From an uncultured Verrucomicrobiae bacterium (GTDB lineage: Bacteria > Verrucomicrobiota > Verrucomicrobiia > Limisphaerales > Palsa-1400), in contig OY969763.1 of NCBI GenBank assembly GCA_963702845.1, positions 800,001 to 864,000 of the forward strand: 64,000 nucleotides of DNA, read 5' to 3'. Shown here in pieces: positions 1,720-18,365 of this stretch. Within the stretch, counting starts at the first letter, position 1; each line of letters starts with the position of its first letter. The notes beneath the pieces were generated by a model. It searched no databases. It was not told where the DNA came from and saw only the letters and a list, made by a program, of their open reading frames with translations. A program made the translations under genes and the position numbers.

Positions 1720-2619
1720 ATGAGTATTCTTGTTGTTGGTTCGACCGCTCTGGATTCCATCCGCACGCCTAACGCGAAAAATCCGCGTTTGCTCGGTGGT
1801 TCTGCCAGTCATGCCGCCGTCGCGGCCAGTTTCTTCGCTCCGGTAAAGTTGGTGGGAATCGTTGGTGAAGATTTCCCGAAGCGCTACGTGTCGCTCTATA
1901 AGAAACACAAGATTGACCTCGAAGGTTTGCAGATCGCCGCCGGCAAAACGTTTCATTGGGCCGGCGAATACGAAGTGAACATGAACAACCGCCGCACGCT
2001 CGAAACTGAGCTCGGCGTTTTCGAAACGTTCACCCCGCGATTGCCCCAGAATTATCGGCAAAGCCAATTCGTGTTGCTCGCCAACATCGCGCCCTCGCTC
2101 CAGCACCATGTCTTGGACCAGATGAGCCGGCCGAAGCTGGTCGTCGCCGACACGATGGATCTATGGCTCAATATTGCGTTGCCCGACTTGTTGAAATTGC
2201 TGCGACGTGTCGATGGCTTCGTTCTCAATGAATCGGAAGCGCAACAGCTCACTCAGGAACACAACCTCGTCAAAGCCGCGCGCAAAATCCACAAGCTCGG
2301 ACCTAAATACGTTATCGTCAAAAAGGGCGAGCATGGCGCGATTCTTTCGGTCAATGGAACGTTGTTTGTCGCGCCGGCTTTTCCGCTGGAGCATGTGGTG
2401 GACCCCACTGGCGCCGGCGACTCGTTCGTCGGAGGCATGATGGGTTATCTCTCGACAGCGCGCGGCAGCGTTGATTCCAATCTGCGCCGCGCGATGATTC
2501 ACGGCAGTGTCGTGGCATCGTTCTGCTGCGAAGGATTCGGATTGATGGCGACCACCCGTGTGACCAAAGACAGGATTCAGAAGCGCGTAGCGGAGTTGGA
2601 AAAGCTGGTTCGATTCTAA
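1720..2619 (+). CDS. PfkB-family carbohydrate kinase
   Basis: MSILVVGS start, GGSA motif, VIVKKGEHGA, DPTGAGDSFVGG signature. Confidence 0.9.
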   Translation: MSILVVGSTALDSIRTPNAKNPRLLGGSASHAAVAASFFAPVKLVGIVGEDFPKRYVSLYKKHKIDLEGLQIAAGKTFHWAGEYEVNMNNRRTLETELGVFETFTPRLPQNYRQSQFVLLANIAPSLQHHVLDQMSRPKLVVADTMDLWLNIALPDLLKLLRRVDGFVLNESEAQQLTQEHNLVKAARKIHKLGPKYVIVKKGEHGAILSVNGTLFVAPAFPLEHVVDPTGAGDSFVGGMMGYLSTARGSVDSNLRRAMIHGSVVASFCCEGFGLMATTRVTKDRIQKRVAELEKLVRF

Positions 2620-2636
2620 CTACTGAACTGAACTGA
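2619..2636 (+). repeat. Stub tract ACT-ACTGA-ACTGA-ACTGA (5' fragments of the 37-bp element)
   Basis: Directly after the pfkB stop; same ACTGA units that precede the full 37-bp copies. Confidence 0.6.
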
Positions 2637-2733
2637 ACAACGCAGCGCAGATGACAGGCGCGCAACTGACTTTGTCTTTATAGGATGTTGGATAACCCGA
2701 AGCGCCAGTTAGCTCGATCTGGCTGGTTCGGCT

Positions 2734-3540
2734 TCACAGTTTCTCCCGATGCGGTTGGTGATCCCGATTCCAGCGGCGTAAGGCGTCGTCGCTGCTGTCT
2801 TCAAAAAGATATTGCAACGTCGGTGATTCAACGTGGCCATCGCAAAACACTACATCGGCTTTGCTTTGGTGGCGTGCAAACGTATTCCCTTCATTGTGAT
2901 GTTTTACATCAGATCAACTCGCCCGATCAATTACTGGGTTGCCGGTAAAGCCATCACCGATCGCAATCATGTCACCTGGATCAACTATTCCCGATTCGCC
3001 GACGGGAGGTGCAAGCGGGCCGTTTGCTGTAGCAGTTGTGCCGCCTAGGCCCAGCGCGCTATATTTTCCGGGGGAACTTAAGCCGACAAAGTTGTAGCCG
3101 TAAGAAAACCATGTCCTCAATGTATTTGGCGCAGGGTCGTTATTATACCAGCGGGCTGAAGGGCAGTTCCATACGCCATTTGTAAAAAAGGGCGTTTTAG
3201 ATTTTGGAACACCCAATTCTTCATAACTTAATGCTTCAGCCCAAGACCTGTAATGCTCCGAATACCCACTCCTTGAAATGTCTACATTTACGTACAAAGG
3301 GTAAAGATGGTTTTCTTGCACAAATCCATGCAAAGCGAGACCTAACTGCCGCACATTGTTGACGCATTGAATTTGCTGCGCTTTGCCTTTTGCTCGAGAG
3401 AACACGGCGAGTAATAGCGCTGCCAAAATCCCAATTATGGCAATAACGACTAAAAGTTCAATGAGCGTGAAGGCGGCACTACTCTGAAATTCTGGCCTTT
3501 GCTTTGTACCGGGTGATTGATGATCGGTAACCTTCGACAT
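2734..3540 (-). pseudogene. Prepilin-type N-terminal cleavage/methylation protein with H-X9-DG motif, interrupted by an in-frame TGA at 2914-2916
   Basis: [22 protein letters not shown] at the N-terminus; the same frame continues past TGA as SDVKHHNEGNTFARHQSKADVVFCDGHVESPTL...WNRDHQPHREKL* (stop 2734-2736). Confidence 0.8.
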
Positions 3541-3712
3541 CTTTATCGCCTTCGCCCTAAAATTGCGCTGTCACCACTTCGATGTCAACGGGCTTCGAAC
3601 ATTCGTCGGCTTGTTCTGGGCCTTTGCCAGTTCACACCCTTCTCGCTCGGGCGATTGTTTATGTGCCGCCGCATGCGGTCAACGGAGCGGGACGAAACCA
3701 GCAGCGTCGCGA

Positions 3713-3754
3713 ACTGAACTGATAGGAAATTGCTTTTTGACGCTGGCGCGGTTA
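3713..3754 (+). repeat. 37-bp element copy 1 (3718-3754) preceded by ACTGA
   Basis: ACTGA + ACTGATAGGAAATTGCTTTTTGACGCTGGCGCGGTTA read directly. Confidence 0.95.
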
Positions 3755-3755
3755 G

Positions 3756-4436
<681 letters not shown>

Positions 4437-4442
4437 ACTCCA

Positions 4443-7172
4443 TCAACGTAAATAAATCGCGCCGGTATTTGTCTTGCCCGTCCCGTCGTTGTTGCCAATA
4501 AAGGCGCCATACGCTGCGTTGCTGCTTTGCAAAACAACACCAACACCATTTCTAAGCCCTTTGATATTTGTCGGCTTGAAGTGGACGTTGAACAAACCCG
4601 TCGCTGTTATGACCGAACCTTGTAACGCGTTTGTCGGAGTATTCGACGTCTTCTGGAGGAGGTTATTGCCGCTGAACTGCGCATTGTAGGTCAATGGCAG
4701 ATTTAAACCCGAACCATCCGTGATCTGTAGCGTGCCCACGGCAACGGTCATCGCTGGCATGCTCGGCGCGTAAACTGAGCCGAAGACAGCAACAGTGTTC
4801 GTAAATCCGCCGAGATAGGTGGTCAAAGCAACGCCGCTCGGGTTCGCCGGTTTGATCCAGGTAAGTTGACCGGCGGGCGCGCCGCTGCTGAAATCGAGCC
4901 AGCCTTCTAACAGTCCCTGATGGTTATACAGGTCTACATACACCGGCCAGCGTCCGTCTTTCGAAATCGGCACCGTTTGGTTGATCGCACCCGACTCGGC
5001 GAGGGCTCCCGACAACGTCACCTTGCCAAGCGCATTGATGGACACCAGACCATAGCCGAAGCCACCCGGGGAACTTGCGGGCGCGTCGGCTGCTGGCGCA
5101 ATCGCCATCGTGTAACGAGCGAGTGCGTGTTGATTGTTTATATTGTAAATTCCGAAGTCGGCTAGCAATGGCGCGGACCATCCTTCGCTCGGACATGACA
5201 CCGTGCCGGTGATTTGTTTCGTTGCACCGGTCCAGTCCAAATACATAGCAACGTTCACAGGTGGTAAAACAACACCGCGTGCGATAGAAACTGTGCTGTT
5301 GCCCAAGGGATCAAACTGACCCTTCAATGGATATTTTGCGCCCGCTAAAAACAATCCGCCCGAATAAGTGCGGTTGAGTTGCACATTCAAATTGAACACG
5401 CCGCCCGCGCTTTGTTCTTTGATTAGCGGTTCACCCATTCCATTCGTCTCATAAAATAATCCGTTGCAGGTTCCCACGACGTCGGCAGAGTTGCCGAAGA
5501 AGAACATCCGGGTTGAAATGAGCGACGCGTCTCCAATATAGTCGAACGCCTGCACACTGAACGTATTCCAACCGGGCTGCAATGTGATCGGCGCGGTCCA
5601 TGTTATAAAGTTTTGTCCCAGTGGGGTCGTAACGCCATGTTGATCGCCGCCATTGAGTGAGTACAAAACCAATCCATCATTGCCCACGTTTGGATTCTGA
5701 TTGATATGGGCCGTCCCGGAAACAGTAATTGCCGGTGAGTTAAATACTTTGTTAGGCAGCGGTCCAACGATCGCGACACTGGGACGGTAGACGCCTGCGG
5801 GAGGACGGTATGGATTAACAACCACACTGTAAGTAGCAGTTCCGGTACAACCATTGGCATCCGTCGCAGTTACGGTGAATAAGTTGGTGCCGAGCGCGCA
5901 AGGAATACCGGTCCATGTCCCGTTACCGTGGAGCGTCAAGCCTGCGGGGATCGAACCGGCAGTCACTGAGAATGTATACGGCGGGACTCCGCTGCTGGCG
6001 CTAAGGTCGGCTGTCGGGTAAACTTCAGCCGTAGCATCACCGCCACCACACACTAAAACACTGCCATCATGAAGGAGCACTTGTCGGTGAAAACTGCGGG
6101 CGAAGGTCATAGGGCCAGTCGGTCGCCAGTTGTTCGATTCAGGATCGTAAAGTTCGGCGGTGTTGCGTTGGAATTGCCAGGCCCCGCCTGAAACCAGGAC
6201 CTTTCCACTGGGCAACAAGGTCGCTTGATGATCGACGTGTGTCCCAACCATCGGTCCAGTTTCTGTCCATGTGTCAGTGGTCGAGTCATAGACTTCCGCT
6301 CCGCCACCAGTGGCTAAAACTTTTCCATTCGGCAACAAGTTCAGTATTTGAAACAAAGCACCGGGCGTAGCGACTTCTGCGCGGGTTCGAGCTATAGGAT
6401 CATACATGTCTGCGAACGTTGGGCTCCATCGGCCACCTGCGAAAAAAACGTTTCCATTAGGCATTAACACCGCGCCGATGTCCCGCTGAGGACGGGTCAA
6501 GGAGCTCCAGAACTGCCACGTACCTGAGGATGGATCGTATACCTGTATGTCGGAAATCGGGAAATAGCCGGAATGTGGCGGCACGCCATTGAACACTTCA
6601 CCCCCTGCCACCATCACTCTTCCGTCTGATAGCAAGGTCGCCGCCGAAAAGGCGCAGCCTTCAATCAATGGATTAGTTGGCGTCCAACTGCCCGTCGCCG
6701 GATCAAAAAGTTCTGCGCTCGCCAGGTAGTGATCGTGCTCGTTGTTAGCGTCTAAATTGAAACCGCCCGCAACGAGGACTTTTCCATCCTGAAGCAATGT
6801 CGCGGTGTGATGAGCTCGTTTGGCAGACATTGGAGCAGTGGAACGCCATGTGCCGGTCGCCGGGTCATAGATCTCTGCACTAGACACGTAACGATCGACA
6901 ACGGGTATCGGCTGAACGTTGGAATATCCGCCCGTGACGAGAACCCTGCCATCGTTCAAGACAGTCGCAGTATGATTCACGCGGGGAATAGTCATTGAGC
7001 CAGTGACATTCCAAGCAGGGGTGGATTCACCCAAATTGTCACTGGGCAAAGTCGCCGGACTGATTGTGATCGTTGGACAGGCGTCCGCGTAAGACAACTC
7101 AGGAGCGCCGAGCGCAATGAGTAAAAGAGCAACCGCTGATCGCGTAGCGGTACCGAGAATGTTAGAATTCAT
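4443..7172 (-). CDS. Secreted Kelch-repeat (galactose-oxidase-like propeller) protein with Ig-like domains
   Basis: Signal peptide; repeated HTATLLxDGxVLVxGG...AExYDPATGxW units; TFSVTAGSIPAG/FTVTATDANG Ig-like segment. Confidence 0.85.
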   Translation of the reverse strand: MNSNILGTATRSAVALLLIALGAPELSYADACPTITISPATLPSDNLGESTPAWNVTGSMTIPRVNHTATVLNDGRVLVTGGYSNVQPIPVVDRYVSSAEIYDPATGTWRSTAPMSAKRAHHTATLLQDGKVLVAGGFNLDANNEHDHYLASAELFDPATGSWTPTNPLIEGCAFSAATLLSDGRVMVAGGEVFNGVPPHSGYFPISDIQVYDPSSGTWQFWSSLTRPQRDIGAVLMPNGNVFFAGGRWSPTFADMYDPIARTRAEVATPGALFQILNLLPNGKVLATGGGAEVYDSTTDTWTETGPMVGTHVDHQATLLPSGKVLVSGGAWQFQRNTAELYDPESNNWRPTGPMTFARSFHRQVLLHDGSVLVCGGGDATAEVYPTADLSASSGVPPYTFSVTAGSIPAGLTLHGNGTWTGIPCALGTNLFTVTATDANGCTGTATYSVVVNPYRPPAGVYRPSVAIVGPLPNKVFNSPAITVSGTAHINQNPNVGNDGLVLYSLNGGDQHGVTTPLGQNFITWTAPITLQPGWNTFSVQAFDYIGDASLISTRMFFFGNSADVVGTCNGLFYETNGMGEPLIKEQSAGGVFNLNVQLNRTYSGGLFLAGAKYPLKGQFDPLGNSTVSIARGVVLPPVNVAMYLDWTGATKQITGTVSCPSEGWSAPLLADFGIYNINNQHALARYTMAIAPAADAPASSPGGFGYGLVSINALGKVTLSGALAESGAINQTVPISKDGRWPVYVDLYNHQGLLEGWLDFSSGAPAGQLTWIKPANPSGVALTTYLGGFTNTVAVFGSVYAPSMPAMTVAVGTLQITDGSGLNLPLTYNAQFSGNNLLQKTSNTPTNALQGSVITATGLFNVHFKPTNIKGLRNGVGVVLQSSNAAYGAFIGNNDGTGKTNTGAIYLR

Positions 7173-7347
7173 AAGGAAAGCGATAAACGTACCGAAGCGT
7201 TGATTTGCATGACCCGTCCGACAAGATTCCCAACCCGTTCGTCATACGGCCGAGAGTCCACCTGCTGAAAAGTAATGTCAAGCATATGCGAGTGTGCAAT
7301 GTGGAAAAACAGGTGGGTCCGAAAAGATCGTAGGATATCGGCCGAAA

Positions 7348-7560
7348 CTATTCTGAAACCATGAGCCGGTAACCGATTCCAGCTTCGGTCATGAACATTT
7401 TTGGATGCGTTGGGTCCTCTTCCAGTTTGTCCCGCAGATGACCGAGGTAGACTCGCAAGTAATGCGTTTGCGTGACGTAATTGGGCCCCCACACCTCGCG
7501 CAGAATCTGCTGATGCGTCAACACCTTGCCGGCGTGCTGCACAAATAGTCGCAATAGCGA
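7348..7560 (-). pseudogene. C-terminal winged-helix fragment of a KdpE-like response regulator, truncated at the 37-bp element
   Basis: SLLRLFVQHAGKVLTHQQILREVWGPNY..YLRVYLGHLRDKLEEDPTHPK..TEAGIGYRL; the receiver domain is missing and the frame abuts 7561. Confidence 0.85.
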
Positions 7561-7612
7561 ACTGATACTGATAGGACTGATAGGAAATTGCTTTTTGACG
7601 CTGGCGCGGTTA
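7561..7612 (+). repeat. 37-bp element copy 2 (7576-7612) preceded by ACTGAT and ACTGATAGG
   Basis: Read directly from the sequence. Confidence 0.95.
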
Positions 7613-7617
7613 AGGCG

Positions 7618-8037
7618 TCACTTAGAATCCTCCAGTCGCCTCGCCCGCAATGTCTCGTCATCATGGTTGACGCTGGCTACCAACAGAAAGGGGCTGCGAC
7701 GACCTACAACACGGAATTCGAAACCAAAATTCTGGCCCGTGAATTTTACAAGAAATGCAGAATTGGAAGGAGAAAGCTGCCATGTGCCGGTGCCGGAAAC
7801 TTCTCCGATCGCACCGGAAGACGGCGACACGGGGAAATGCGCGACCATGAAGGTGTGGTCACCATTTAATCGGAGGTATTCCGTCGGCGGGCGAGTGTGG
7901 TGTACTGCGGGCACCCAAGTCCCAGCTAACGTTGATATGTCTGGCTGTTTGTCGGGATCAGCGTAGAGCAGGTGTCTCAAGACGGCGATCGCGAGCAGCG
8001 TAGCGCCAAAGATCAGAATCCTAACGTGCATTTTCAT
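7618..8037 (-). CDS. Hypothetical exported or membrane-anchored protein
   Basis: N-terminal hydrophobic segment; LAGTW...LNGDHTF...GTGTWQL beta-rich pattern. Confidence 0.6.
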   Translation of the reverse strand: MKMHVRILIFGATLLAIAVLRHLLYADPDKQPDISTLAGTWVPAVHHTRPPTEYLRLNGDHTFMVAHFPVSPSSGAIGEVSGTGTWQLSPSNSAFLVKFTGQNFGFEFRVVGRRSPFLLVASVNHDDETLRARRLEDSK

Positions 8038-8327
8038 AATGGGTTCTATTTGATCGGCGCCTAACAGTTAATACACGACAACTGTTCGCAGATTTTTAAT
8101 AGGCGAACAAGGGTTTTTGAGGTTCAAGATTCAGATTTCCGACCTTGGAATCACCGAGAGCGGACGGCTGCGGCGTAGGAGCGTTGCGACAGCATCGCGA
8201 CGGAGCCGCTGCCGGACGCGGACGTCGTAAGCGTGCAGCACGGAAAAATGAGCAAAGTTCGCGTGGTTTCGCATAGGTTCGCTTTGCTTCTGTAGATGTG
8301 AATGCTGCGGTTTGCGAAACTGCGTGC

Positions 8328-8410
8328 GTGCCAGTCAATACGACGCATCCTGATTACGCCGCGAACCAAGCTGCATGGCTTCGCGCTCGCGATGTTTTGG
8401 CTGGCGAAGA
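8328..8410 (+). pseudogene. N-terminal stub resembling DUF4055 (portal-like) proteins, cut by the 37-bp element
   Basis: GTG start: VPVNTTHPDYAANQAAWLRARDVLAGEE then runs into ACTGA; resemblance recalled from family N-termini, not searched. Confidence 0.5.
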
Positions 8411-8458
8411 ACTGAACTGATACTGATAGGAAATTGCTTTTTGACGCTGGCGCGGTTA
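8411..8458 (+). repeat. 37-bp element copy 3 (8422-8458) preceded by ACTGA and ACTGAT
   Basis: Read directly from the sequence. Confidence 0.95.
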
Positions 8459-8674
8459 ATTCGAAAGTTTCCCCGCTTTCCTGACGCGAAGCGGACTGAA
8501 GTCCGCGCTCCTTTGGTTCGAACGTTTTAAGCGCTGATCGGATGCGTAAATCTCTGAGCCGGACGTGCGCCTGATGCTCATTGCAAAAAACAGTGGTGGC
8601 TCGAGGGTTTCCTCGTTGGTGAGTTTGCCGCCCGGCAAGGGGCGACCAGACCACGCACGAAAGGATAACGGGCC

Positions 8675-9973
8675 ATGAATAGTAAACACACCCTCTTCCC
8701 GCTGGCCATCGGACTGGCGCTGAGTGTCACGATGCCTTCCATATTTGCTCAAGCCACCGCCCCTCCCACATCCACCGGGACGGCTTCCGTGGCGCCAGCG
8801 GAACCACCATCGGCAGGACATAAGCTTAGCACCGCCGAGCTTGATAAATTGGTTGCACCGATCGCGCTTTATCCTGACCCGCTCGTCGCAACGATCCTGC
8901 CGGCGTCCGCATACCCGCTGGAAATTGTCGATGCGGCGCGCTTTGTCAAAGATACGAACAATATCGCCAAGCTGGATGAACAACCTTGGGATAAAAACGT
9001 CAAAGAAGTCGCCCGCATTCCTAAAGTCCTCGACCAGTTGAACGAGAATATCAACTGGACCACCGCCCTGGGCGACGCGTTCGTCAAAGAACCGAAACAG
9101 ATCATGGAGGCGATCCAAACGATGCGCGACAAGGCAAAACAAACGGGCGCTCTCAAATCGACACCGCAGCAAACGGTCAACGTCGTCCAGCAGGCCGGCA
9201 CACAAGTCATCCAGATCGAACCGGCACAGCCGAACGTTGTGTATGTTCCGCAATACAATCCAACCGTAGTCTTCGCGGGCATGCCGGTTGCGTATCCCGG
9301 TTATTATTATCCACCCGCGGCGTATTATCCGGGAGCCGCTGCTGCGCTCTCGTTCGGTGCTGGCGTGGCAGTGGGGGCATGGGCCGGCAACAGCTGCAAC
9401 TGGCACGGCGGCACTGTGAATGTGAACAACTACAATAATTACGCTCACTACAACGGTGCCAATATTAACAATGCAAATATCAACAATGCTCGGATCAACA
9501 ACGCAAACATCAACTCGGCCAAGATCAATTCCGCCAACACTTCAACATGGCATGCGGACCAAAGCCGTCTGAACGCCTCCGGGGCAAGCGTGGCTACTGC
9601 CCAAAGCCGCGCAGACAGTGGTTGGGGCTCGAGCGCAAGCAAGGCTAATTGGTCGCAACAGGTCGACAACGCCAGCAAGCAATTCAGTGCGGAAAATAAA
9701 ACCTTGGAATCGCACCAGGGCGAGGCAGGACAATTTGGCAGTCACGGTTTTTCGGAAGCTTCCGGCGCCGATCGTTTTTCAGGAGCGCAATCCGCTGATC
9801 GATTCAGCGGCGCAGACAGGAGCGCCTTCGACAGTTCGCACGGTTCTTTCGCTGATCGCGACGCAAGCTTTCGAGGCGACATGAGTCGCGGTGGTTTCGG
9901 CGGCGGATTCCACGGAGGCGGCGGCTTTGGCGGGTTCCACGGAGGAGGCGGATTTCATGGAGGCCGCCGTTAA
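8675..9973 (+). CDS. DUF3300 domain protein
   Basis: LDKLVAPIALYPDPLVATILPASAYPLEIVDAAR and WTTALGDAF motifs; low-complexity Asn- and Gly-rich tail. Confidence 0.88.
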   Translation: MNSKHTLFPLAIGLALSVTMPSIFAQATAPPTSTGTASVAPAEPPSAGHKLSTAELDKLVAPIALYPDPLVATILPASAYPLEIVDAARFVKDTNNIAKLDEQPWDKNVKEVARIPKVLDQLNENINWTTALGDAFVKEPKQIMEAIQTMRDKAKQTGALKSTPQQTVNVVQQAGTQVIQIEPAQPNVVYVPQYNPTVVFAGMPVAYPGYYYPPAAYYPGAAAALSFGAGVAVGAWAGNSCNWHGGTVNVNNYNNYAHYNGANINNANINNARINNANINSAKINSANTSTWHADQSRLNASGASVATAQSRADSGWGSSASKANWSQQVDNASKQFSAENKTLESHQGEAGQFGSHGFSEASGADRFSGAQSADRFSGADRSAFDSSHGSFADRDASFRGDMSRGGFGGGFHGGGGFGGFHGGGGFHGGRR

Positions 9974-9988
9974 ACCTAAACCACGGAT

Positions 9989-10933
9989 ATGTCTATGAAC
10001 TCTATTTCTCGCTCTTTGCTTAAACAGGTATTGATCTTAGCCGCCGTGCTGTGCATCACGCCGATGATGTGCCTGAAGGCCGCAACCGCCGGTAAGACAT
10101 TCGCTTCGCCGGAAGATGCAGTGAAGGCATTTTCAAACGCAGTAAACAATAATGACACCAACGCTCTGATAGTCATCTTTGGTTCGGACTTCGACCAAAT
10201 TCAGTCTCCAAACCCGGCCAGGAGACAGGAAGATATGGCAACCATCGCCAAACGCCTGAAGGAAGGCACGCAACTCGAACCTTACGCCAGCAACCGGGTT
10301 GTGGTCGACATCGGCAAAGACCGTTGGCCGTTTGCCGTCCCCATCGTTCAGACAAACGGTTCGTGGCAATTCGACACCGACGCCGGCAAGGACGAACTCC
10401 AAAGCCGCCGCGTTGGCGGCAATGAACGGGACGCGCTTAGAAGTGTCCGGGCTTACGCAGTGGCCCAGCGCGTATACGCGAGCAAAGATCGAAACGGCGA
10501 TCAGGTGCCGGAATACGCCCAGAAATTCATCAGTTCGCCCGGCCAACAAGACGGACTCTATTGGTCAGCGGACGCCGGCGGTGAAACCAGTCCACTCGGT
10601 CCACTTTACGCCCAGGCCCAAAGCGCAGCGCAGGCGACCGCAAATGGAAACGGCTCGACCGGGGCACAACCGTTCTACGGTTACTATTTCAAGATTCTCG
10701 ATCGCCAGGGCAAGAACGCTCAAGGAGGCGCTAAAGATTACGTGAACAATGGCCACATGACCGATGGTTTCGCCCTCGTTGCCTGGCCTGCGGATTACGG
10801 CAAATCAGGCGTCATGACCTTCATCATCAATCAACAGGGCAAGGTTTATCAAAAGGACCTTGGGAAAAACACGGCGGACATCGCCCAAAAGATGCAGGCC
10901 TACGATCCGGATCGAAGTTGGAACGCGGACTGA
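9989..10933 (+). CDS. DUF2950 domain protein
   Basis: FASPEDAV, WPFAVPIV, RRVGGNE, EYAQKFISSPGQQDGLYW, GFALVAWPADYGKSGVMTF; the stop TGA lies inside an ACTGA stub. Confidence 0.88.
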   Translation: MSMNSISRSLLKQVLILAAVLCITPMMCLKAATAGKTFASPEDAVKAFSNAVNNNDTNALIVIFGSDFDQIQSPNPARRQEDMATIAKRLKEGTQLEPYASNRVVVDIGKDRWPFAVPIVQTNGSWQFDTDAGKDELQSRRVGGNERDALRSVRAYAVAQRVYASKDRNGDQVPEYAQKFISSPGQQDGLYWSADAGGETSPLGPLYAQAQSAAQATANGNGSTGAQPFYGYYFKILDRQGKNAQGGAKDYVNNGHMTDGFALVAWPADYGKSGVMTFIINQQGKVYQKDLGKNTADIAQKMQAYDPDRSWNAD

Positions 10934-10996
10934 TACTGATAACTGATAGGAAATCGCTTACTGATAGGAAATTGCTTTTTGACGCTGGCGCGGTTA
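10929..10996 (+). repeat. 37-bp element copy 4 (10960-10996) preceded by ACTGAT, ACTGATA and ACTGATAGGAAATCGCTT
   Basis: Read directly from the sequence. Confidence 0.95.
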
Positions 10997-11268
10997 AGGG
11001 AGAATTGCTTTTCACAATGTCTCATTTTTTGAGGATGCTGCGCCCGTAGAAGCGTTCAGTCAAGTGACCTTGCGCATTCCGGTGCATCGTCTTCAGTCCT
11101 GGCAGTCCCGGCGGATGCCTTAGAATGCGCTAAATCCAAGGCCCGATGGCGCTCTCAACACTTGGCATTTACGACCGGCGCGCTATTATATTGTCACAAG
11201 CGCCGGCGACATTCTCTACCTTTAAGTCGGCGCGATGGTTGAGGCGAAACGAAAGGAAACCAATTGCG

Positions 11269-12039
11269 ATGAAAAAATTGCTGGTTCTGTTTGTGTTGTG
11301 GGCGGGACTTCCGGCCCATGTTGTAGCGGATCTCGTAACATACCGTTTTGCCGGCGTTGTGATTGGGCAAAACAATACTGGCGTCTTCACCGGCGGTCAC
11401 CCTTACACGCTCACGATTGTAATTAACACTGCCGCCCACGGCAATTCTACCGTGCCGGAAAGAACTGATTACACCAACGCGATCACATCCTCGTATTTCA
11501 ATTACGATTCAGGCAACTACGTCGCACAAGGAACGAATGGAGGCACAGTGAGTGTGGAAAACGATGATCGTGGTCTTTACGATCACTTTCTAATACTCGG
11601 ACTTCCTGGGTTTTCTTCACTCGCGGGGCAGCCACTTACTTCTTGCGAAATTCACCTCATCGACACCAATCACATTGTATTTTCGAACAATGACCTGCCG
11701 CAGATTCTGCCAGTTGACGCGTTTCAGCAGCGCTATTTTAACATTGGCTGGGGAATTGATTGGGACACCCGTGGACTGGACCTAAGCATTGACTCAATTA
11801 CAGTTATTCAGCGTCGACCAGCCATCACAAGTTGGACTCGGACGATCGATTCACTTGCGTTCAATATAGAGTTCGCCGGCCAATCCTGCACAAACTTGTT
11901 GGAACGATCGTTTGCAATCGGTAGTTCTGCACAATGGGAGGTTGTCAGTTCCTGTGTTGCATCTGGCGGAAACACGAATTGGACCGTGCCACTGCAGATG
12001 GACCAACCCTCAGTGTTTTATCGTGTGAAAGGCCAATGA
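11269..12039 (+). CDS. Hypothetical secreted protein with C-terminal FYRV-type tail
   Basis: AGGA upstream of ATG 11269, signal peptide MKKLLVLFVLWAGLPAHVVA, ends SVFYRVKGQ. Confidence 0.7.
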   Translation: MKKLLVLFVLWAGLPAHVVADLVTYRFAGVVIGQNNTGVFTGGHPYTLTIVINTAAHGNSTVPERTDYTNAITSSYFNYDSGNYVAQGTNGGTVSVENDDRGLYDHFLILGLPGFSSLAGQPLTSCEIHLIDTNHIVFSNNDLPQILPVDAFQQRYFNIGWGIDWDTRGLDLSIDSITVIQRRPAITSWTRTIDSLAFNIEFAGQSCTNLLERSFAIGSSAQWEVVSSCVASGGNTNWTVPLQMDQPSVFYRVKGQ

Positions 12040-12064
12040 ACTGTTCCCGCTGATAAGTCATGCT

Positions 12065-12101
12065 TAACCGCGCCAGCGTTAAAAAGCAATTTCCTATCAG
12101 T
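12065..12101 (-). repeat. 37-bp element copy 5, inverted, one mismatch at 12080
   Basis: TAACCGCGCCAGCGTTAAAAAGCAATTTCCTATCAGT. Confidence 0.95.
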
Positions 12102-12790
12102 TGGTTTTGTGAACAAGTTTGCCTGCCAATGCCGACAAGCTACTCGTCGAAATATGTGTCAACGCTTTCTTGCTGTCGAAATTTGCAGCGGGATGCAGCG
12201 GCACGTATACCAGACGCAACTCCCCGCAACTGTTTGACCGACCGTCAGAAATTTTTTCAAAACCCTGTGATACGTTCGCCACATGAAAACACGAATTGCA
12301 CAGTTTGAACCGACACTGGTTTGCGACCACCCACAGCGCAACCGAAATCGTGTCAAAACTTTTTTGCATAGAAAAATGGCGCGTTGCGGCGTGGTAAGGC
12401 GTGTCAGTGCATGCAGGTGCATGATGGGAAACGGGCTTCGGAAAAATTCAGAAAAACATGTGATAGAAATGTGCGCATGAGCGAGAGCCATCAGTTTATC
12501 AATGAGCCGGCGAAGCCGGTGCCGCATCCGTTGTCGAATAAGCAGGCTGCCGATGTTCAACGCAAACGTGCCGCGCAGAAGAGAGTGCCAGTCGGCCAGT
12601 GTGAGCCATCTTCAGAAATCTGCCCAAATGTCGCTTTGTTTCGCTTTGTGTCGCGTTGCTTCGCTAGACGCCTGGCGACGAAACTCTCACCATATATGCA
12701 AATGACAGAGACATCGCGTTCGCCCAACTACCTGTCGCGCCGAAGTCAGACGCAGGCGGATCAACCCTCAACCCTCAACATGTTTTAACC

Positions 12791-13162
12791 ATGCATTCTA
12801 CAGACACAAAATCAAAGTTCCTCGAGTTCCGCGGCAAAGGCTGGAGCCTTGCCCGCATCGCAAAACAAATCGATGTCAGCGTCCGCACCTTGGCCGACTG
12901 GAACCAGCAACACCGCCAGGAAATACGCACGCTCCGCGCCATCGATATCGAAGCTCTTCAGGAAAAGTTTCTCGCCACCCACGAGCAGGAGCTCAGTTCT
13001 CTCACCGCCCAACTCCAGCGCATCGAGCAAGCGATCGGCGACAGCAAACTCCAATTCGTCGAAACTAAAGACTTATTCCGACTGGCTGCCGTGACCCGCG
13101 CCGAAATCCGCAAAGTCATCATACCCACGGAGCCGGATGATAAATCGCATGCACAAAACTAA
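12791..13162 (+). CDS. Small helix-turn-helix protein (terminase-small-subunit or transposase-type HTH)
   Basis: FLEFRGKGWSLARIAKQIDVSVRTLADW HTH followed by a coiled-coil-like segment. Confidence 0.75.
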   Translation: MHSTDTKSKFLEFRGKGWSLARIAKQIDVSVRTLADWNQQHRQEIRTLRAIDIEALQEKFLATHEQELSSLTAQLQRIEQAIGDSKLQFVETKDLFRLAAVTRAEIRKVIIPTEPDDKSHAQN

Positions 13163-13830
13163 AATTGCATCGTTTCTGCATCATTTTTGCATCATTTCCC
13201 AAATGGAGGCCGTTACAAAATCCAGCGGCGGTCACGTTTGGTCACGTTCGGTCATGTTCAGTCATCTTTGGTCACGTCTACCATCGGCTCGCCTCCTTCC
13301 TGTCGGGCCAAAGCGCCCCGCGAAGGCAGACGCGCCCTTCGAGCGAAATGCTTTACCGGTCAAAATTCGGTAAAGAAACGGTAAAGAAACGGTAAAGTTT
13401 TACCCCTTGTAAAATGAACACGGTTCAAACGAAAAAACGTACAGAAAATGTACAGAAAGGTTCAGTTTTCGGTCCACGCCTGAAAAACCGGGAAAAAGGT
13501 AACGGGAGGTAATCAGAAGTAATCGGAGGTAATCTCATTATGCAATCTCTGTCACGTTTGGTCATCTTTGGTCACGTCTGGTCATCGGAGGTAATCCCAA
13601 TGCACCACCCGTCGTCGCCATTCATGCAAAACTGCACCATTTCTGCCTCGTTTCTGCCTCATCTTTTTTGCGCACCGGATGTTCCGGTCGGTCAAATTCG
13701 GTAAAGAAACGGTAAAGAAACGTAAAGTTTTTTAAATGTGCCGCCGTGCCGTCGGACGTTCCGGTCCTGAATTGATCAGATCTCGGCAAAAAACAAAATC
13801 GACTGACTTTCAGTGACCTTTACGGAAATT
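13160..13830. repeat. Non-coding cluster of different short direct repeats with 10-11 bp period
   Basis: TGCATC x3, GGTCAC-like x5, CGGTAAAGAAA x3 (twice), GTACAGAAA x2, GGTAAT-like x4, CTGC(A/C) x3. Confidence 0.8.
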
Positions 13831-13980
13831 GTTTGCTGCCTGTCACCAAATGTAGCCTGTTCGGCGTTCCGGAGAATTCAATAAAATTGTAGCTTCCCTT
13901 TTGGCGAATCGATACAATAAGCTACTTTTCACAACGAAAAATAAAAACTCCCGGCATGCGGTCGGGAATGCAATATTAAT

Positions 13981-15444
13981 ATGGCACTGAGTCCAAAACT
14001 GGGGCCCGAACAAGCGGCAGCCAACATGGCTGACATTGCCCCCCGCTTTACACCACAAGAAGCTGTTATCGAAGCGAATCGTTGTCTGTTTTGTTTTGAT
14101 GCGCCCTGCATCCAGGCATGCCCGACCGGCATCGATATCCCGAGCTTCATTCAAAAAATTGCCAACGGTAACCTGACGGGTTCCGCGCGAACAATTTTAA
14201 GCGCCAACATTCTCGGCGCCAGTTGCGCGCGGGTTTGCCCCACGTCCGTCCTTTGCGAAGGCGCGTGCGTCGTGCTCGATCGCGAAGGCAAAGCTGTCCA
14301 GATCGGACGATTGCAGCGTTACTCGACGGATCACGTTTACGACAACAAAATCCAGGTCCTCAAGCCTGCCGCGAAAAAGTCTGGCAAAAAAGTTGCCGTG
14401 CTCGGCGGTGGTCCTGCCGGCCTTGGTTGCGCGGCGGAGTTGGCTCAACTCGGCCACGACGTCACTGTTTTCGAAAAGAAACCGCAAGCCGGGGGTCTCA
14501 ACACCTACGGCATCGCTTATTACAAGATGCCGCCGCAGGTGAGCCTTGAAGAAGTCGAGCTGGTCAAGAGCCTCGGAGTTCAATTCAAATTCGGCGTCGA
14601 AATCGGCAAAGACATTCAGGTCGCCGACCTCGAAAAGCAATTCGACGCGATTTTCGTAGGCCTCGGCCTTGGCCGCGGTCATCAGATGAATATTCCCGGC
14701 GAGAATTTGCCGGAAGTTATTCAGGCCCTCGATTTCATCGAAAAACTTCACACCACGCCGTTGCACAAAGTGCCGGTCGGCGCGCGTGTCGCTGTTATCG
14801 GCGGCGGCAACACCGCCATCGACGCGGTGACCCAGGCCAAGCGCCTCGGTGCCGAAAAAGCGATGCTCATTTATCGCCGCACTCAGGCTGAAATGTCGGC
14901 TTATGATTTCGAGCAGGACCTCGCCAAAACTGATGGCGCTGAATTCGTTTTCAATGCTGCACCCATCGAAGTTATCGCCGATTGCAACGGGCACGTGGCC
15001 GGCCTGAAACTCGCCCGCACGCAGTTGGTTAACGGCAAAGCCGAAATTATTCCCGGCCAGGAATGGGTCGAGCCCGTCGACATGGTTATCAAAGCGATTG
15101 GCGAACCTAAACAAGTCGAACTGCTCAAGCGCCTCTTTCCGAAAATCGAACTCGATAAGCGCGGCGCGATTGTTTACGACCGCGCAACCGGCGCAACGAA
15201 TCTCCCGAAAGTTTTTGCTGGTGGCGATTGCGCCAACGGTGGACGCGAAGTTGTTAATGCTGTCGGCGAAGGCAAGAAAGCCGCGCGCGGCATGCACGCG
15301 ATGTTCGTAAACCAGAAGGTTGTCGGCCCGGTTCAGCAATCTCGACTGGGTGTGAAGTCAGCGCCGGTGGGTTCTGGTTTGGAAAATCCGATCCGTGTGC
15401 CCGAACTGGAAAAAGAATACGCGAAGCAAGCGGCCGCACACTAA
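13981..15444 (+). CDS. preT: NAD(P)-dependent dihydropyrimidine dehydrogenase subunit (GltD-like)
   Basis: EANRCLFCFDAPCIQACP, GGGPAG, GGGNTAIDA, FAGGD; directly upstream of preA. Confidence 0.88.
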   Translation: MALSPKLGPEQAAANMADIAPRFTPQEAVIEANRCLFCFDAPCIQACPTGIDIPSFIQKIANGNLTGSARTILSANILGASCARVCPTSVLCEGACVVLDREGKAVQIGRLQRYSTDHVYDNKIQVLKPAAKKSGKKVAVLGGGPAGLGCAAELAQLGHDVTVFEKKPQAGGLNTYGIAYYKMPPQVSLEEVELVKSLGVQFKFGVEIGKDIQVADLEKQFDAIFVGLGLGRGHQMNIPGENLPEVIQALDFIEKLHTTPLHKVPVGARVAVIGGGNTAIDAVTQAKRLGAEKAMLIYRRTQAEMSAYDFEQDLAKTDGAEFVFNAAPIEVIADCNGHVAGLKLARTQLVNGKAEIIPGQEWVEPVDMVIKAIGEPKQVELLKRLFPKIELDKRGAIVYDRATGATNLPKVFAGGDCANGGREVVNAVGEGKKAARGMHAMFVNQKVVGPVQQSRLGVKSAPVGSGLENPIRVPELEKEYAKQAAAH

Positions 15445-15469
15445 TTTCTAACCTCAACCGAAAACCGTT

Positions 15470-16780
15470 ATGGCAGATCTCTCCATTAACATCGCCGGAA
15501 TCAAATCCCCTAATCCGTTCTGGGTCGCAAGCGGCCCACCGGCCAACACCGCTTACCAGGCAAACCGCGCATTCGAAATGGGCTGGGGCGGCGTCGTGTG
15601 GAAAACAATTGGTGACCCGGTCGTCAACGTTTCTTCGCGTTACTCTGCCCTGAATTCGGGCACGACGCGGATGATCGGCTTGAACAACATCGAGTTGATC
15701 AGCGATCGCTCGCCCGAGACGAATTTTCGCGAAATCGCCGAAGTCAAAAAGAACTGGCCCAATCACGCCGTCATCGCCTCGTTGATGGTCGATACGCGTG
15801 AACGCTGGCATGAATTCGTGAAGCGCTCCGCCGACGCTGGCGCGGACGGCATCGAACTGAATTTCGGTTGCCCGCACGGTATGTGCGAACGCGGTATGGG
15901 TTCGGCCGTCGGTCAGCAACCTGCGGTTGCTGAGAAGATTGTGAGTTGGGTAATGGAAGCCGCAACGATTCCTGTGATCGTCAAGCTGACGCCGAACATC
16001 ACGGACGTGACCTTCGCCGGTCGCGCAGCCAAAAAGAGCGGTGCAAACGCAATTTCGTTGATCAACACGATCAACAGCATCACGCAAGTCAACCTGGACA
16101 ATCTTTGCCCCGAACCATACGTCGACGGATTGAGCAGCCACGGCGGTTACTGCGGACCTGCAGTGAAGCCGATCGCTTTGAACATGGTTCAAAGCTGCGC
16201 GGCTGATCCAGAAATCGGCCTTCCGATTTCAGGAATCGGCGGCGTGCAAAGCTGGCGCGACGCCGCAGAATTCATCGCGCTTGGTTCGACTAGCGTTCAA
16301 GTCTGCACCGCTATCATGCATTACGGCTTCCGAATCGTCGCCGACATGAAAGAGGGCCTGAGCGATTACCTCGATTCCAAAGGCATGAAGAGCGTGATGG
16401 AGTTGGTCGGCAAAGCCGTTCCTACATTGCAAAAGTGGGAAAAGCTCGACCTGCATTACAAACGCATCGCGAAGATCGATTACAACAAATGCATTGGCTG
16501 CAACCTGTGCTACATCGCCTGCGAAGACGGCGCCCATCAAGCGATCGCATTGATTCCGCCGAACGGCCATGGGCTCGGCCCCGGTCGCGTTCCCGGCAAA
16601 CCCATTCCGGAAATCAAAGAAGAGGAATGCGTCGGCTGTAATCTTTGCTCACTGGTCTGCCCGGTGGACAATTGCATTAACATGGCGTCGATTCCGACCG
16701 GCCGCGAGCGCATGAGTTGGAGTGATTACCAGACCAAGCTTAGCCGTGGCGAAATGCAGCCGATACCGCCGCATCCATGA
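15470..16780 (+). CDS. preA: Dihydropyrimidine dehydrogenase subunit PreA
   Basis: ELNFGCPHGMCERGMGSAVGQ, HGGYCGPAVKPIAL, two C-terminal 4Fe-4S motifs. Confidence 0.95.
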   Translation: MADLSINIAGIKSPNPFWVASGPPANTAYQANRAFEMGWGGVVWKTIGDPVVNVSSRYSALNSGTTRMIGLNNIELISDRSPETNFREIAEVKKNWPNHAVIASLMVDTRERWHEFVKRSADAGADGIELNFGCPHGMCERGMGSAVGQQPAVAEKIVSWVMEAATIPVIVKLTPNITDVTFAGRAAKKSGANAISLINTINSITQVNLDNLCPEPYVDGLSSHGGYCGPAVKPIALNMVQSCAADPEIGLPISGIGGVQSWRDAAEFIALGSTSVQVCTAIMHYGFRIVADMKEGLSDYLDSKGMKSVMELVGKAVPTLQKWEKLDLHYKRIAKIDYNKCIGCNLCYIACEDGAHQAIALIPPNGHGLGPGRVPGKPIPEIKEEECVGCNLCSLVCPVDNCINMASIPTGRERMSWSDYQTKLSRGEMQPIPPHP

Positions 16781-16865
16781 TCAAATCCCAAGCACTAAAC
16801 ACCAGAGCTTCTCTGGAAGATTGGTGTTTGGAGTTTGAAGCTTTTATAATTTCCACATTGTATTT

Positions 16866-18365
16866 ATGACGAAGACCCTGACCCCTTGCCCCGTTTTCAT
16901 CGGCGGGGAATGGCGCAACCTTAAGACGAGCGCCTACAATCCCGTTTACAACCCGTCGACTGGCGATGTCATTGCGGAAACGCCCATGGGCAGTGCCAAA
17001 GATGTCGATGAAGCTGTGCAAGCTGCGGCAGACGCATTTCCCGGTTGGTGGGAAACGCCCGCTATCGACCGTGCGCGCATTTTATTCCGCTTCCGCGGAT
17101 TGGTAGAAGACAACTTCGAAGAGCTCGTGCGTTGCAACACTCGCGAACACGGCAAGACTTTGGCCGAGTCGCGCGGTGACGTTAAGCGCGGCATGGAAAT
17201 GATCGAGTTCGCTTGCGGCGCTCCTTCCCTGTTGATGGGCGAAAGTCTGGAGAACGTCGCCAAAGGCATCGATTGCGACACCATTCGCCAACCGCTCGGT
17301 GTTTGCGCTGGTATCACGCCGTTCAATTTTCCGGCGATGGTTCCACTCTGGATGTATCCAGTCGCCCTTGCTTGCGGAAATACGTTCGTTCTCAAGCCAA
17401 GCGAAAAAGTTCCGCTCACGGCGATCAAGGTCATTCAACTGCTTGAGAAAGCCGGTTTGCCCAAAGGTGTTTTGAACATCGTCCACGGCGGACGTGATGT
17501 CGTTGATGCGTTGCTGACGCATCCGAAAGTGAGAGCGGTTTCGTTCGTCGGCTCGACGCCGATTGCACGCCACGTTTTCGAACTCGGGACCAAACATGGC
17601 AAGCGCGTGCAATCGAATGGTGGCGCGAAGAATTATGTTTTCCTCATGCCCGATGCCGATGTGGACAATTCGTCACGCGGTTTGATCGAGGCGGCATTCG
17701 GTTGCGCGGGCGAACGTTGCATGGCCGGTTCAACCGCTGTTGTGATCGGCGGCGCGAGCAAGACAGTTTTGCCTGCGTTGGTTGAAGCCACGCGCGCCAT
17801 CAAAGTCGGTCCGACCGATCGCGAAAAACAACCGAACATGGGCCCTGTGATTTCGCGCCAGCACAAAGAGCGCGTGGAACAGCTTCTCGAAGCTGGTGTT
17901 AAAGAAGGCGCAAACGTCTCCGTCGACGGCCGTGGCGTGAAAAATTCGGATGAGCCCAACGGATTTTTCGTTGGTGCCAGTATTCTCGACAACGTCCAGA
18001 ACGGAATGACCGTCGCGAAAGAAGAAATCTTCGGCCCGGTCCTGAACGTGATGCGCTTCGACGACCTCGATGCCGCCATCGAAATGGCCAACAAATCGCC
18101 ATACGGAAACGGCGCATCGATTTTCACCAACAACGGCAAAGCCGCCCGGGAATTCAAGCATCGCATCAAAGCCGGCATGGTCGGAATCAACATCGGTGTT
18201 CCTGCATCCGTGCCGTGGTTCCCATTTAACGGTTGGGACGAATCGTTCTTTGGCGACCTACATATGCAGGGCAAAGAAGGTATCCAATTTTTCACGCAGC
18301 AAAAAGTGACGACGTCGCGCTGGTTCAATTACGGGGAAGGCGATATCTGGCATCGGGAAAAATAA
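16866..18365 (+). CDS. mmsA: CoA-acylating (methyl)malonate-semialdehyde dehydrogenase
   Basis: ITPFNFPAMVPLWM, AAFGCAGERCMA, EEIFGPVL, GMVGINIGVP, SFFGDLH. Confidence 0.92.
   Translation: MTKTLTPCPVFIGGEWRNLKTSAYNPVYNPSTGDVIAETPMGSAKDVDEAVQAAADAFPGWWETPAIDRARILFRFRGLVEDNFEELVRCNTREHGKTLAESRGDVKRGMEMIEFACGAPSLLMGESLENVAKGIDCDTIRQPLGVCAGITPFNFPAMVPLWMYPVALACGNTFVLKPSEKVPLTAIKVIQLLEKAGLPKGVLNIVHGGRDVVDALLTHPKVRAVSFVGSTPIARHVFELGTKHGKRVQSNGGAKNYVFLMPDADVDNSSRGLIEAAFGCAGERCMAGSTAVVIGGASKTVLPALVEATRAIKVGPTDREKQPNMGPVISRQHKERVEQLLEAGVKEGANVSVDGRGVKNSDEPNGFFVGASILDNVQNGMTVAKEEIFGPVLNVMRFDDLDAAIEMANKSPYGNGASIFTNNGKAAREFKHRIKAGMVGINIGVPASVPWFPFNGWDESFFGDLHMQGKEGIQFFTQQKVTTSRWFNYGEGDIWHREK

Follow-up and report, generated by a model that had tools for sequence, protein, structure and literature searches.

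Partial copies anchored at the head of a short, gene-facing repeat in Limisphaerales genomes: a possible mobile promoter

We analysed a stretch of 64,000 nucleotides (nt) from an uncultured Verrucomicrobiae bacterium (GTDB lineage Verrucomicrobiota; Verrucomicrobiia; Limisphaerales; Palsa-1400), which comprises positions 800001-864000 of the single 6.03-Mb contig OY969763.1 (assembly GCA_963702845.1) and is called the window below. The window carries copies of a 37-mer that begins with ACTGAT (its head; the opposite end is the tail). Directly before the direct copies stand short partial copies, here termed stubs, which all begin at the first base of the repeat and stop at different lengths. 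A preliminary description, made from the letters of the window, had taken the repeat for a local array; it is instead an order-wide, gene-proximal and orientation-biased module rather than an element of a local array. The explanation that we tentatively favor, at a probability of roughly 0.4, is that of a promoter-like module spread in accessory DNA (a "putative mobile promoter"), with the stubs arising from repeated breaking and rejoining at its fixed head.

Partial copies at the head of the repeat

Four exact direct copies of the 37-mer and one inverted copy are present in the window (Table 1), where 100 shuffles gave an expectation of 0. The direct copies follow one another at start-to-start distances of 3858, 846 and 2538 nt. 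An automatic parse found exact stubs of at least 5 nt at 4 of the 4 direct copies. When the real upstream flank was replaced by random genomic sequence, an exact prefix stub of this length occurred at a rate of 0.00175 per copy, and the stubs in the window are therefore far beyond chance. The sequence itself shows the lengths and positions of the stubs at 3713, 7561, 8411, 10929 and 2619 exactly as the preliminary description had given them, and its remark that the inverted copy has no stub was likewise borne out.

The longest stub in the window, the 18-mer at 10942, departs from the repeat by a single mismatch, a C at position 14, which matches variant copies at genome positions 6007284 and 6015672. 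The first stub of the same site contains the TGA stop codon of a DUF2950 gene. At the pfkB site, where stubs occur with no full copy, the run begins on the final base of the pfkB stop codon and adjoins a different, 40-nt repeat family at 2636-2680. Positions 10842-10996, which span the 10929 stutter, are matched identically by a contig of 155 nt assembled from a public soil metagenome run; this contig may derive from the source sample, and so excludes only an assembly-polishing artefact of this record. The assembled contigs of two soil metagenome runs contained no variant of the 10929 site.

Units of 5 and 6, of 6 and 9, and of 6, 7 and 18 nt are mixed in the window, and the pfkB site alone shows the equal units 5,5,5. 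A fixed-unit microsatellite, with one unit length repeated head to tail, had been named in the preliminary description as an outcome that would refute its inference, and the stubs do not form one overall: stub units of 3 to 22 nt are mixed, and only some runs have equal units. A three-frame stop-codon cassette was also ruled out, as the stubs at 7561 hold all of their stop codons in one frame.

The genome as a whole holds 11 copies of the 37-mer at no more than 6 substitutions, 7 of them exact, 2 with one mismatch and 2 with three. A short-word BLAST search together with a sequence-only model gave 22 matches, degenerate copies included. The copy at 10960 belongs to a long form of 142 nt that has 96% identity to genome position 6007074, and its extension bears a second GAGAATTGCTTTT box, 33 nt past the first (GGAAATTGCTTTT). 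The preliminary description had stubs in front of every direct repeat and called for a tabulation at all genomic copies. The claim stands for the window but not for the rest of the genome, where exact stubs of at least 5 nt occur at only 1 of the 18 copies examined (1152294). Stub-like variants were read by eye at 1151016 (ACT, ACTGAT) and 315908 (CTGAT), and a degenerate copy at 2646577, a separate find, carries ACTGAT, ACTGA. The lengths at this last copy (6,5) also break the proposed rule that stubs lengthen toward the full copy, which is obeyed throughout the window but not in other genomes (see below).

Table 1. The repeat, its stubs and the genes beside them in the window
Feature	Position	Strand	Basis or remark
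ACT, ACTGA three times, AC (head stubs without a full copy)	2619..2638	+	sequence read
ACTGA, 5-nt head stub	3713..3717	+	sequence read, automatic parse
Full 37-mer ACTGATAGGAAATTGCTTTTTGACGCTGGCGCGGTTA	3718..3754	+	exact copy
ACTGAT (6) then ACTGATAGG (9), head stubs	7561..7575	+	sequence read, automatic parse
Full 37-mer	7576..7612	+	exact copy
ACTGA (5) then ACTGAT (6), head stubs	8411..8421	+	sequence read, automatic parse
Full 37-mer	8422..8458	+	exact copy
ACTGAT (6), ACTGATA (7), 18-mer ACTGATAGGAAATCGCTT	10929..10959	+	head stubs before the 10960 copy
Full 37-mer plus long-form extension	10960..11101	+	exact 37-mer; extended homology
Inverted 37-mer, 1 mismatch	12065..12101	-	sequence read
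DUF1559/N_methyl gene	2914..3540	-	start lies 173 nt past the head of the 3718 copy, which points at this gene
GH51 arabinofuranosidase, C-terminal fragment, 226 residues	from 3756		directly after the tail of the 3718 copy
Kelch gene	4443-7172	-	after the response-regulator fragment; also faced by the 7576 copy
OmpR-type response-regulator fragment, 5'-truncated	7169..7542	-	faced by the 7576 copy

Distribution across the order and orientation toward genes

At no more than 3 mismatches the full 37-mer is restricted to the genus of the host (3 of 61 genomes), and a model search found diverged copies in 12 of the 31 genomes of the family. Of 301 genomes of the order, 62 contain the exact 18-nt head, CTGATAGGAAWTTGCTTT; they represent 47 of 144 genera, and the matches number about 298, against 0 for the reversed control. 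Other families have ACTGATAGGAAWTTGCTTTCTGGACGCTCCGCGGTTYA, with unrelated flanks on both sides, and the unit there is 38 nt. One genome has 60 dispersed copies on about 40 contigs. Copies within a local cluster share a single orientation, and their start-to-start distances range from 38 nt, in perfect tandem copies of that period, up to 7 kb. In an unselected sample of 60 copies from 36 loci, conservation sets in sharply at position 1 and declines around positions 38-41; positions 2-19 were set by the search pattern, so that only the borders of this profile are informative. At four loci in other genera (L041, L046, L110 and L111), about 20 inserted nt separate the head half ACTGATAGGAAATTGCTTTT of some copies from the GACGCTGCGCGG block, which indicates that the repeat is built from at least two separable boxes.

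Stubs, too, recur across the order. We searched the 301 genomes for the pattern ACTGA, 0-4 nt, A[AC][CT]GATAG[AG]AA and obtained 48 places in 31 genomes, as against 7 places for the reversed pattern. Thirty of these loci were fetched, of which 19 proved to be the real repeat with stubs and 11 were chance-like; at least 17 genomes of the order besides that of the host show head stutter at this repeat. One run elsewhere has the lengths 7,8,14,9,9 (ACTGATA, ACTGATAG, a 14-mer and ACTGATAGG twice), and others read 21,6,21 (a 21-mer, ACTGAT and a 21-mer), 5,3,6 (ACTGA, ACT, ACTGAT), 6,3 and 5,3. None of these runs lengthens steadily toward the full copy. Further runs consist of ACTGAT, ACTGATA (as at 10929), of ACTGA twice and of ACTG three times. 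At one locus (L053) stubs of 22 and 17 nt differ at several bases from the neighbouring copy. The tail border has a counterpart, found at 1 of the 60 sampled copies, in which the suffix stubs CTCCGCGGTTTA and TCCGCGGTTTA follow the full copy.

Copies of the repeat tend to point with their heads toward the start of a gene. Orientation was scored for 44 copies of an unselected sample, drawn from the first matches per genome for the 18-nt head plus six array regions, with at least 700 nt required on each side. An open reading frame (ORF) of at least 100 amino acids (aa), starting within 250 nt and reading away from the ACTGAT end, was present at 36 of the 44 copies, with a median distance of about 65 nt; the corresponding count for the tail end was 18 of 44. 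In the host genome, a home-made gene caller placed a gene start beyond the head at 19 of 25 copies and beyond the tail at 10 of 25. The genes on the head side are mutually unrelated and encode, among others, a DUF1559 pseudopilin-like protein, a methyltransferase, a sulfatase, a Ser/Thr kinase, peptidases, PQQ (pyrroloquinoline quinone) propeller proteins, CHRD/PEP-CTERM proteins, a TonB-like protein and an extracytoplasmic function (ECF) sigma factor. Two properties of putative mobile promoters are found here: within one genome, highly similar non-coding sequence (7 copies exact, 4 near-exact) stands before genes of unrelated Pfam families, and it is shared by different genera or families (47 of 144 genera). 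Genes faced by copies in the window are given in Table 1; the winged-helix motif of the response-regulator fragment was seen in its translation and has no Pfam match.

The 37-38-nt unit is most likely a short, strand-specific core promoter, or a promoter-proximal control site, that would be read out through its ACTGAT end. Along the gene-facing strand, TTAACC (CTGACC in other genera) is followed after 17 nt by CAATTT (CAAATT), and the element ends 9 nt further on. Its length would equal the distance from a -35 hexamer to about +3, with a poor match to the consensus. The spacings of sigma-54 and ECF promoters gave no fit by eye. That the repeat is the coding N-terminus of the faced gene was excluded by 1-nt indels between genera and by differing frames. 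A T7-like phage promoter was set aside after a search of 5 genomes gave no PF00940 match, control genomes being silent too, and viral contigs searched with the repeat gave no match.

DNA joints and accessory DNA

The base at which the stubs begin is also a point at which homology to other sequences ends. The left flank of the 7561 stubs matches a response-regulator paralogue as far as ...GCGA and breaks off at 7560/7561, in the middle of the gene; past the break, the paralogue continues through its winged-helix domain and the window enters ACTGAT. To the left of the 8411 stubs, homology to a multi-copy gene extends until ...GAAGA and ends exactly at 8410, and a paralogue of that gene (genome 141776-142038) keeps its reading frame past the breakpoint. 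Beside the 3718 copy, homology stops at the tail, at 3755, and the full-length relatives of the GH51 fragment in two congeners have 512 and 531 aa. Similar joints are found in other organisms. Metagenome contigs of a related organism include one copy whose tail cuts a gene that is intact in the host genome, and another whose head, with ACTGA beside it, replaces the 3' end of a gene. Homology of the flanks to paralogues or orthologues also ends at the repeat border in L029 and L027. Pfam matches in two other families revealed border-cut genes, namely GFO_IDH_MocA (from profile position 56), ThiC (last 55 positions only) and ThuA (1-140 of 209). The fixed end of the stubs is the point where homology to paralogues or orthologues stops, and it is thus a real DNA joining point. 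One fixed and one variable position had been postulated from the stubs in the window, and this is upheld, the fixed end being position 1 of the repeat as well as a homology breakpoint.

Several copies lie in DNA of variable presence. A 2.0-kb segment between an aminotransferase gene and its neighbour is missing in a congener and contains two motif-then-gene units, and four further copies lie inside a 13-kb insertion that divides the nuo operon between nuoI and nuoH. This nuo insertion (L002, genome 5998001-6018000; about 4320-17765) also bears a large terminase gene, a collagen-repeat/S74 tail-fibre gene, a rhodanese gene and two receiver-domain genes, as well as two 250-nt modules, each with two repeat copies 210 nt apart. 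The pfkB site was compared with two congeners in search of an empty site, and synteny was not conserved. An insertion sequence bounded by the inverted pair 10960/12101 was considered and rejected: the 297-aa ORF between the two copies encodes a signal peptide and matches no transposase in Pfam or NCBIfam. The segment that follows the 3718 copy (window 3756-7172), consisting of the arabinofuranosidase fragment and a 909-aa Kelch/Ig protein, has 70% DNA identity over 3.3 kb to genome positions 632957-636266, where the arabinofuranosidase frame is also short (385 aa, as against 512-531 aa in congeners).

Explanations for the stubs and relation to known systems

We suggest that the module travels in accessory DNA and would repeatedly land at joints of unrelated, often truncated segments. 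The stubs, which are partial copies of its first 3-22 bases placed beside a full copy, would then record breaks or joins at one fixed place, the base before position 1, combined with a variable place inside the copy. Two routes may be envisaged. A staggered break, with one nick at the border and a variable internal nick, could be filled in and religated. Alternatively, an incoming copy could insert, head first, into the head of one already present; the long duplicated tails would then collapse and the short head duplicate survive, which would also account for the dominance of short stubs. Runs of equal length (5,5,5; 9,9; 21,21) would reflect secondary slippage. A Ku gene is present in the host genome, so that end joining is available. 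From the common fixed end, the real joint to which it corresponds, the occurrence at both borders and in many lineages, and the sometimes foreign sequence of the stubs, we infer breaking and joining at the borders of the module. While the anatomy, the distribution, the orientation bias and the breakpoints are observed, a promoter function, with transcription starting near the head end, is a matter of interpretation, drawn from the sequence and its placement before genes.

A number of observations weigh against this explanation. In the unselected sample, stubs of at least 5 nt were present at 1 of 60 copies and stubs of at least 3 nt at 4 of 60; stubs are thus rare outside the window, and either the process is occasional or the window is special for a reason that we cannot name. 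Plain tandem duplication could yield each single stub. The -35/-10 assignment fits only about 6 of 12 consensus positions, and a sigma-70 scan of positions 2500-12400 (TTGACA, 16-18 nt, TATAAT; at least 9 of 12) gave 11 sites, none of them in the repeat on either strand. No RNA run is listed among the public runs that hold the region. A gene start beyond the head is lacking at 8 of the 44 copies scored, and also at the 10960 site itself, where the DUF2950 gene runs into the head. Complementary halves of the truncated genes were sought near other copies and none was found, which leaves serial re-insertion hypothetical. As for enzymes, the host genome gave no match for an IS91-type Y2 transposase (PF04986, Y2_Tnp) and no T7-type RNA polymerase, control genomes being silent in both searches; Cas1 was found neither in the host genome nor in one genome with 24 copies; and none of the 3 rve and 11 tyrosine-recombinase genes of the host genome lies beside a copy.

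Ordinary replication slippage would make the stubs a compound short tandem repeat, formed at a head that readily undergoes small tandem duplications without any dedicated cut or enzyme. A tandem duplication starting at position 1 would indeed look like a stub followed by a full copy, runs of equal units exist (ACTGA three times after pfkB; 4,4,4; 5,5; 9,9 and 21,21 elsewhere), and GA precedes 3 of the 5 window sites, a possible 2-nt microhomology for the 5-nt unit. However, slippage offers no reason to anchor at one base, whereas units of 3, 4, 5, 6, 7, 8, 9, 14, 17, 18, 21 and 22 nt share their start base in many independent copies and genomes, and this anchor coincides with homology breakpoints. 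Some stubs differ, moreover, from the adjacent copy (C14 of the 18-mer; L053), and (ACTGA)2 shows no genome-wide enrichment, with 14 occurrences for an expectation of 9.5, of which 3 are in this island. We consider slippage unlikely, if a serious competitor for any single stub. Head-on conflict between replication and transcription is an improbable cause, as stub-bearing copies occur in both orientations.

Enzymes that act on the repeat as a site have also to be considered. In a repeat-bounded capture array, an integrase resembling those of CRISPR (clustered regularly interspaced short palindromic repeats) adaptation or of integrons would attack both borders, insert arbitrary fragments and duplicate the site, and a stub would result when a second attack fell inside the site. 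Same-orientation arrays with unrelated segments between the copies agree with this, several of the segments being pieces of genes severed at both borders (in the window, of arabinofuranosidase, response-regulator and portal-like genes; elsewhere, GFO_IDH_MocA, ThiC, ThuA and an RHS fragment), and so do the spacing of 38 nt to 7 kb and the anchored partial duplications at both borders. Yet no candidate integrase stands beside the arrays, Cas1 is lacking as noted above, the repeat does not bound the 2.0-kb insertion relative to the congener G002, and most copies are single, dispersed and placed before intact genes, an arrangement more in keeping with a promoter than with a site of recombination. 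Nor does the site form a hairpin, and hence it is not attC-like: the 40-mer folds with a minimum free energy of -2.6 kcal/mol, z-scores of -0.25 and -1.21 for the two strands and no stem longer than 3 base pairs (bp), and a repeat that does not fold is not attC-, REP (repetitive extragenic palindromic)- or IS200-like. A capture array therefore seems to us improbable. Hardly more credible is a broader version, in which the 38-bp site would be the working site of an undescribed DNA-joining system whose enzyme cuts both borders exactly and joins arbitrary DNA, the site doubling as a promoter. If this were true, same-orientation arrays of captured gene fragments and promoter-gene units would follow, and the stubs would be mis-measured second cuts; the likeness to repeat duplication in CRISPR or to cassette capture in integrons would be a loose analogy, the site here being non-palindromic.

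A transposon that targets the head, its repeated insertion and excision leaving target duplications as footprints, is very unlikely in our view. The commonest stub lengths, 5-7 nt, lie within the range of target duplications and the head is AT-rich, but a given transposase makes one duplication length, no element was seen between stub and full copy among the loci read, and no transposase is nearby, the 3 rve genes being far off and Y2_Tnp giving no match. Bacterial cut-and-paste excision, moreover, seldom leaves footprints. The variable-length target duplications entertained in the preliminary description thus survive only in the sense that staggered cuts of variable width could be involved; a fixed duplication length does not suit stubs of 3 to 22 nt. 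A Tn7- or Mu-like end was rejected with only 3 rve genes in the genome, all distant, and a likeness to the 38-bp inverted repeat of Tn3 was dropped in the absence of a GGGG outer end and of inverted partners.

Least probable of all is abortive copying of a template by a reverse transcriptase, a telomerase-like enzyme or a protein-primed polymerase that restarts at the template end. A shared start, a variable stop and a restart are what end-to-end template jumping would be expected to leave. Nevertheless, RVT_1 (PF00078) has 0 matches in the 6.03-Mb contig, which is the whole single-contig genome, and the control search was positive in 3 of 14 genomes; this speaks against the earlier suggestion of 5'-truncated reverse transcripts. 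Telomerase-like or slide-back copying, proposed alongside it, fares no better: the 3' ends of the stubs have no common realignment base, the copies are internal and not at DNA termini, and the suffix stubs at the tail border would need the opposite polarity. There is no sign of a structured RNA, as the fold z-scores are near 0 and Rfam gave 0 matches on both strands of positions 2000-14500 at E values up to 1. No tRNA was found near the repeat.

Returning to the reading as a promoter-like module, the closest known counterparts are the putative mobile promoters, which are near-identical non-coding sequences that stand before unrelated genes within a genome and across genera or families, have no Rfam match and have no known mobile element attached, all as here (Nijveen, Matus-Garcia and van Passel 2012; PMC3575422). 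Their mode of movement is described as unknown, and they were defined on at least 50 nt at -150 to -50 from the start codon (PMC3575422), whereas this unit is 37-38 nt, has base-sharp ends and lies 2-150 nt from starts. Gene-truncating breakpoints and end-anchored partial copies, as seen here, are not described in PMC3575422. The same source names Correia elements, ERIC and REPIN among promoter-bearing repeats (PMC3575422).

The present repeat has no inverted repeat and no fold, and its two ends are unlike each other. In this it differs from Correia, ERIC and REPIN elements, which have terminal inverted repeats or hairpins, Correia elements also a TA duplication; it resembles them in that they are short, dispersed intergenic repeats able to supply promoters and spread within a lineage. 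A further likeness is to IS91/ISCR elements, which have one functionally fixed and one variable end, make no target duplication and co-mobilize adjacent DNA (PMC13181058); outward promoters are reported for ISCR1 (PMC6218425). The oriIS end of IS91 has subterminal palindromes and adjoins a fixed tetranucleotide (PMC13181058). The present repeat has neither a palindrome nor a constant flanking tetranucleotide and does not belong with the oriIS ends. At locus L112, in another family, the tail is 193 nt away from an IS91-type transposase, and none is nearby at the other 16 of 17 loci examined. CRISPR repeats are likewise 37-38 nt long, stand in direct orientation within local arrays with unrelated sequence between them, and are occasionally partial; here, in contrast, the spacing runs from 0 nt to 7 kb with no fixed spacer length, Cas1 is absent from the host genome, and most copies are solitary, dispersed and upstream of gene starts. 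One copy (G248:C2:69926) faces a Cas1 gene (824-aa frame) at a distance of about 1.7 kb.

For the question of how promoters can pass among genes and genomes with no transposon to carry them, this repeat offers a tractable case: at 38 bp it is short, its ends are base-sharp, some genomes carry it in tens of copies, and it was found in 62 of the 301 genomes searched. The visible scars that it leaves, namely stubs at head and tail, tandem copies and joints that truncate genes, fix where DNA is cut or joined. Should it prove to be an active promoter, it would also serve as a ready expression element in a phylum for which genetic tools are few.

Other repeats lie close to the copies in the window. 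The 40-nt family beside the pfkB stubs (2636-2680), with the core GCAGCGCAGATGACAGGCGCGCAACTGACTTTGTC, has 7 other copies in the genome and is often found beside a third family (window 8058-8146, more than 20 copies). These two families cluster at about 0.14-0.18, 1.72-1.73, 2.24, 4.28-4.29 and 4.83 Mb, near tyrosine-recombinase genes, which suggests that they belong to a multi-copy integrative element. The congener G001 has dozens of near-exact copies of a hairpin-forming GCGGACTGAAGTCCGC element found at 8470-8520, which resembles a REP element or a terminator. Window 12345-13740 holds an element of roughly 1.2 kb that has at least 6 further genome copies at 80-93% identity. It contains a 134-aa ORF, a 123-aa ORF with weak matches of helix-turn-helix, IS3-OrfA and Terminase_5-like type, and blocks of 10-11-nt tandem repeats (GTCACGTTTG..., TGCATCGTTTC..., CGGTAAAGAAA...) that are iteron-like in look.

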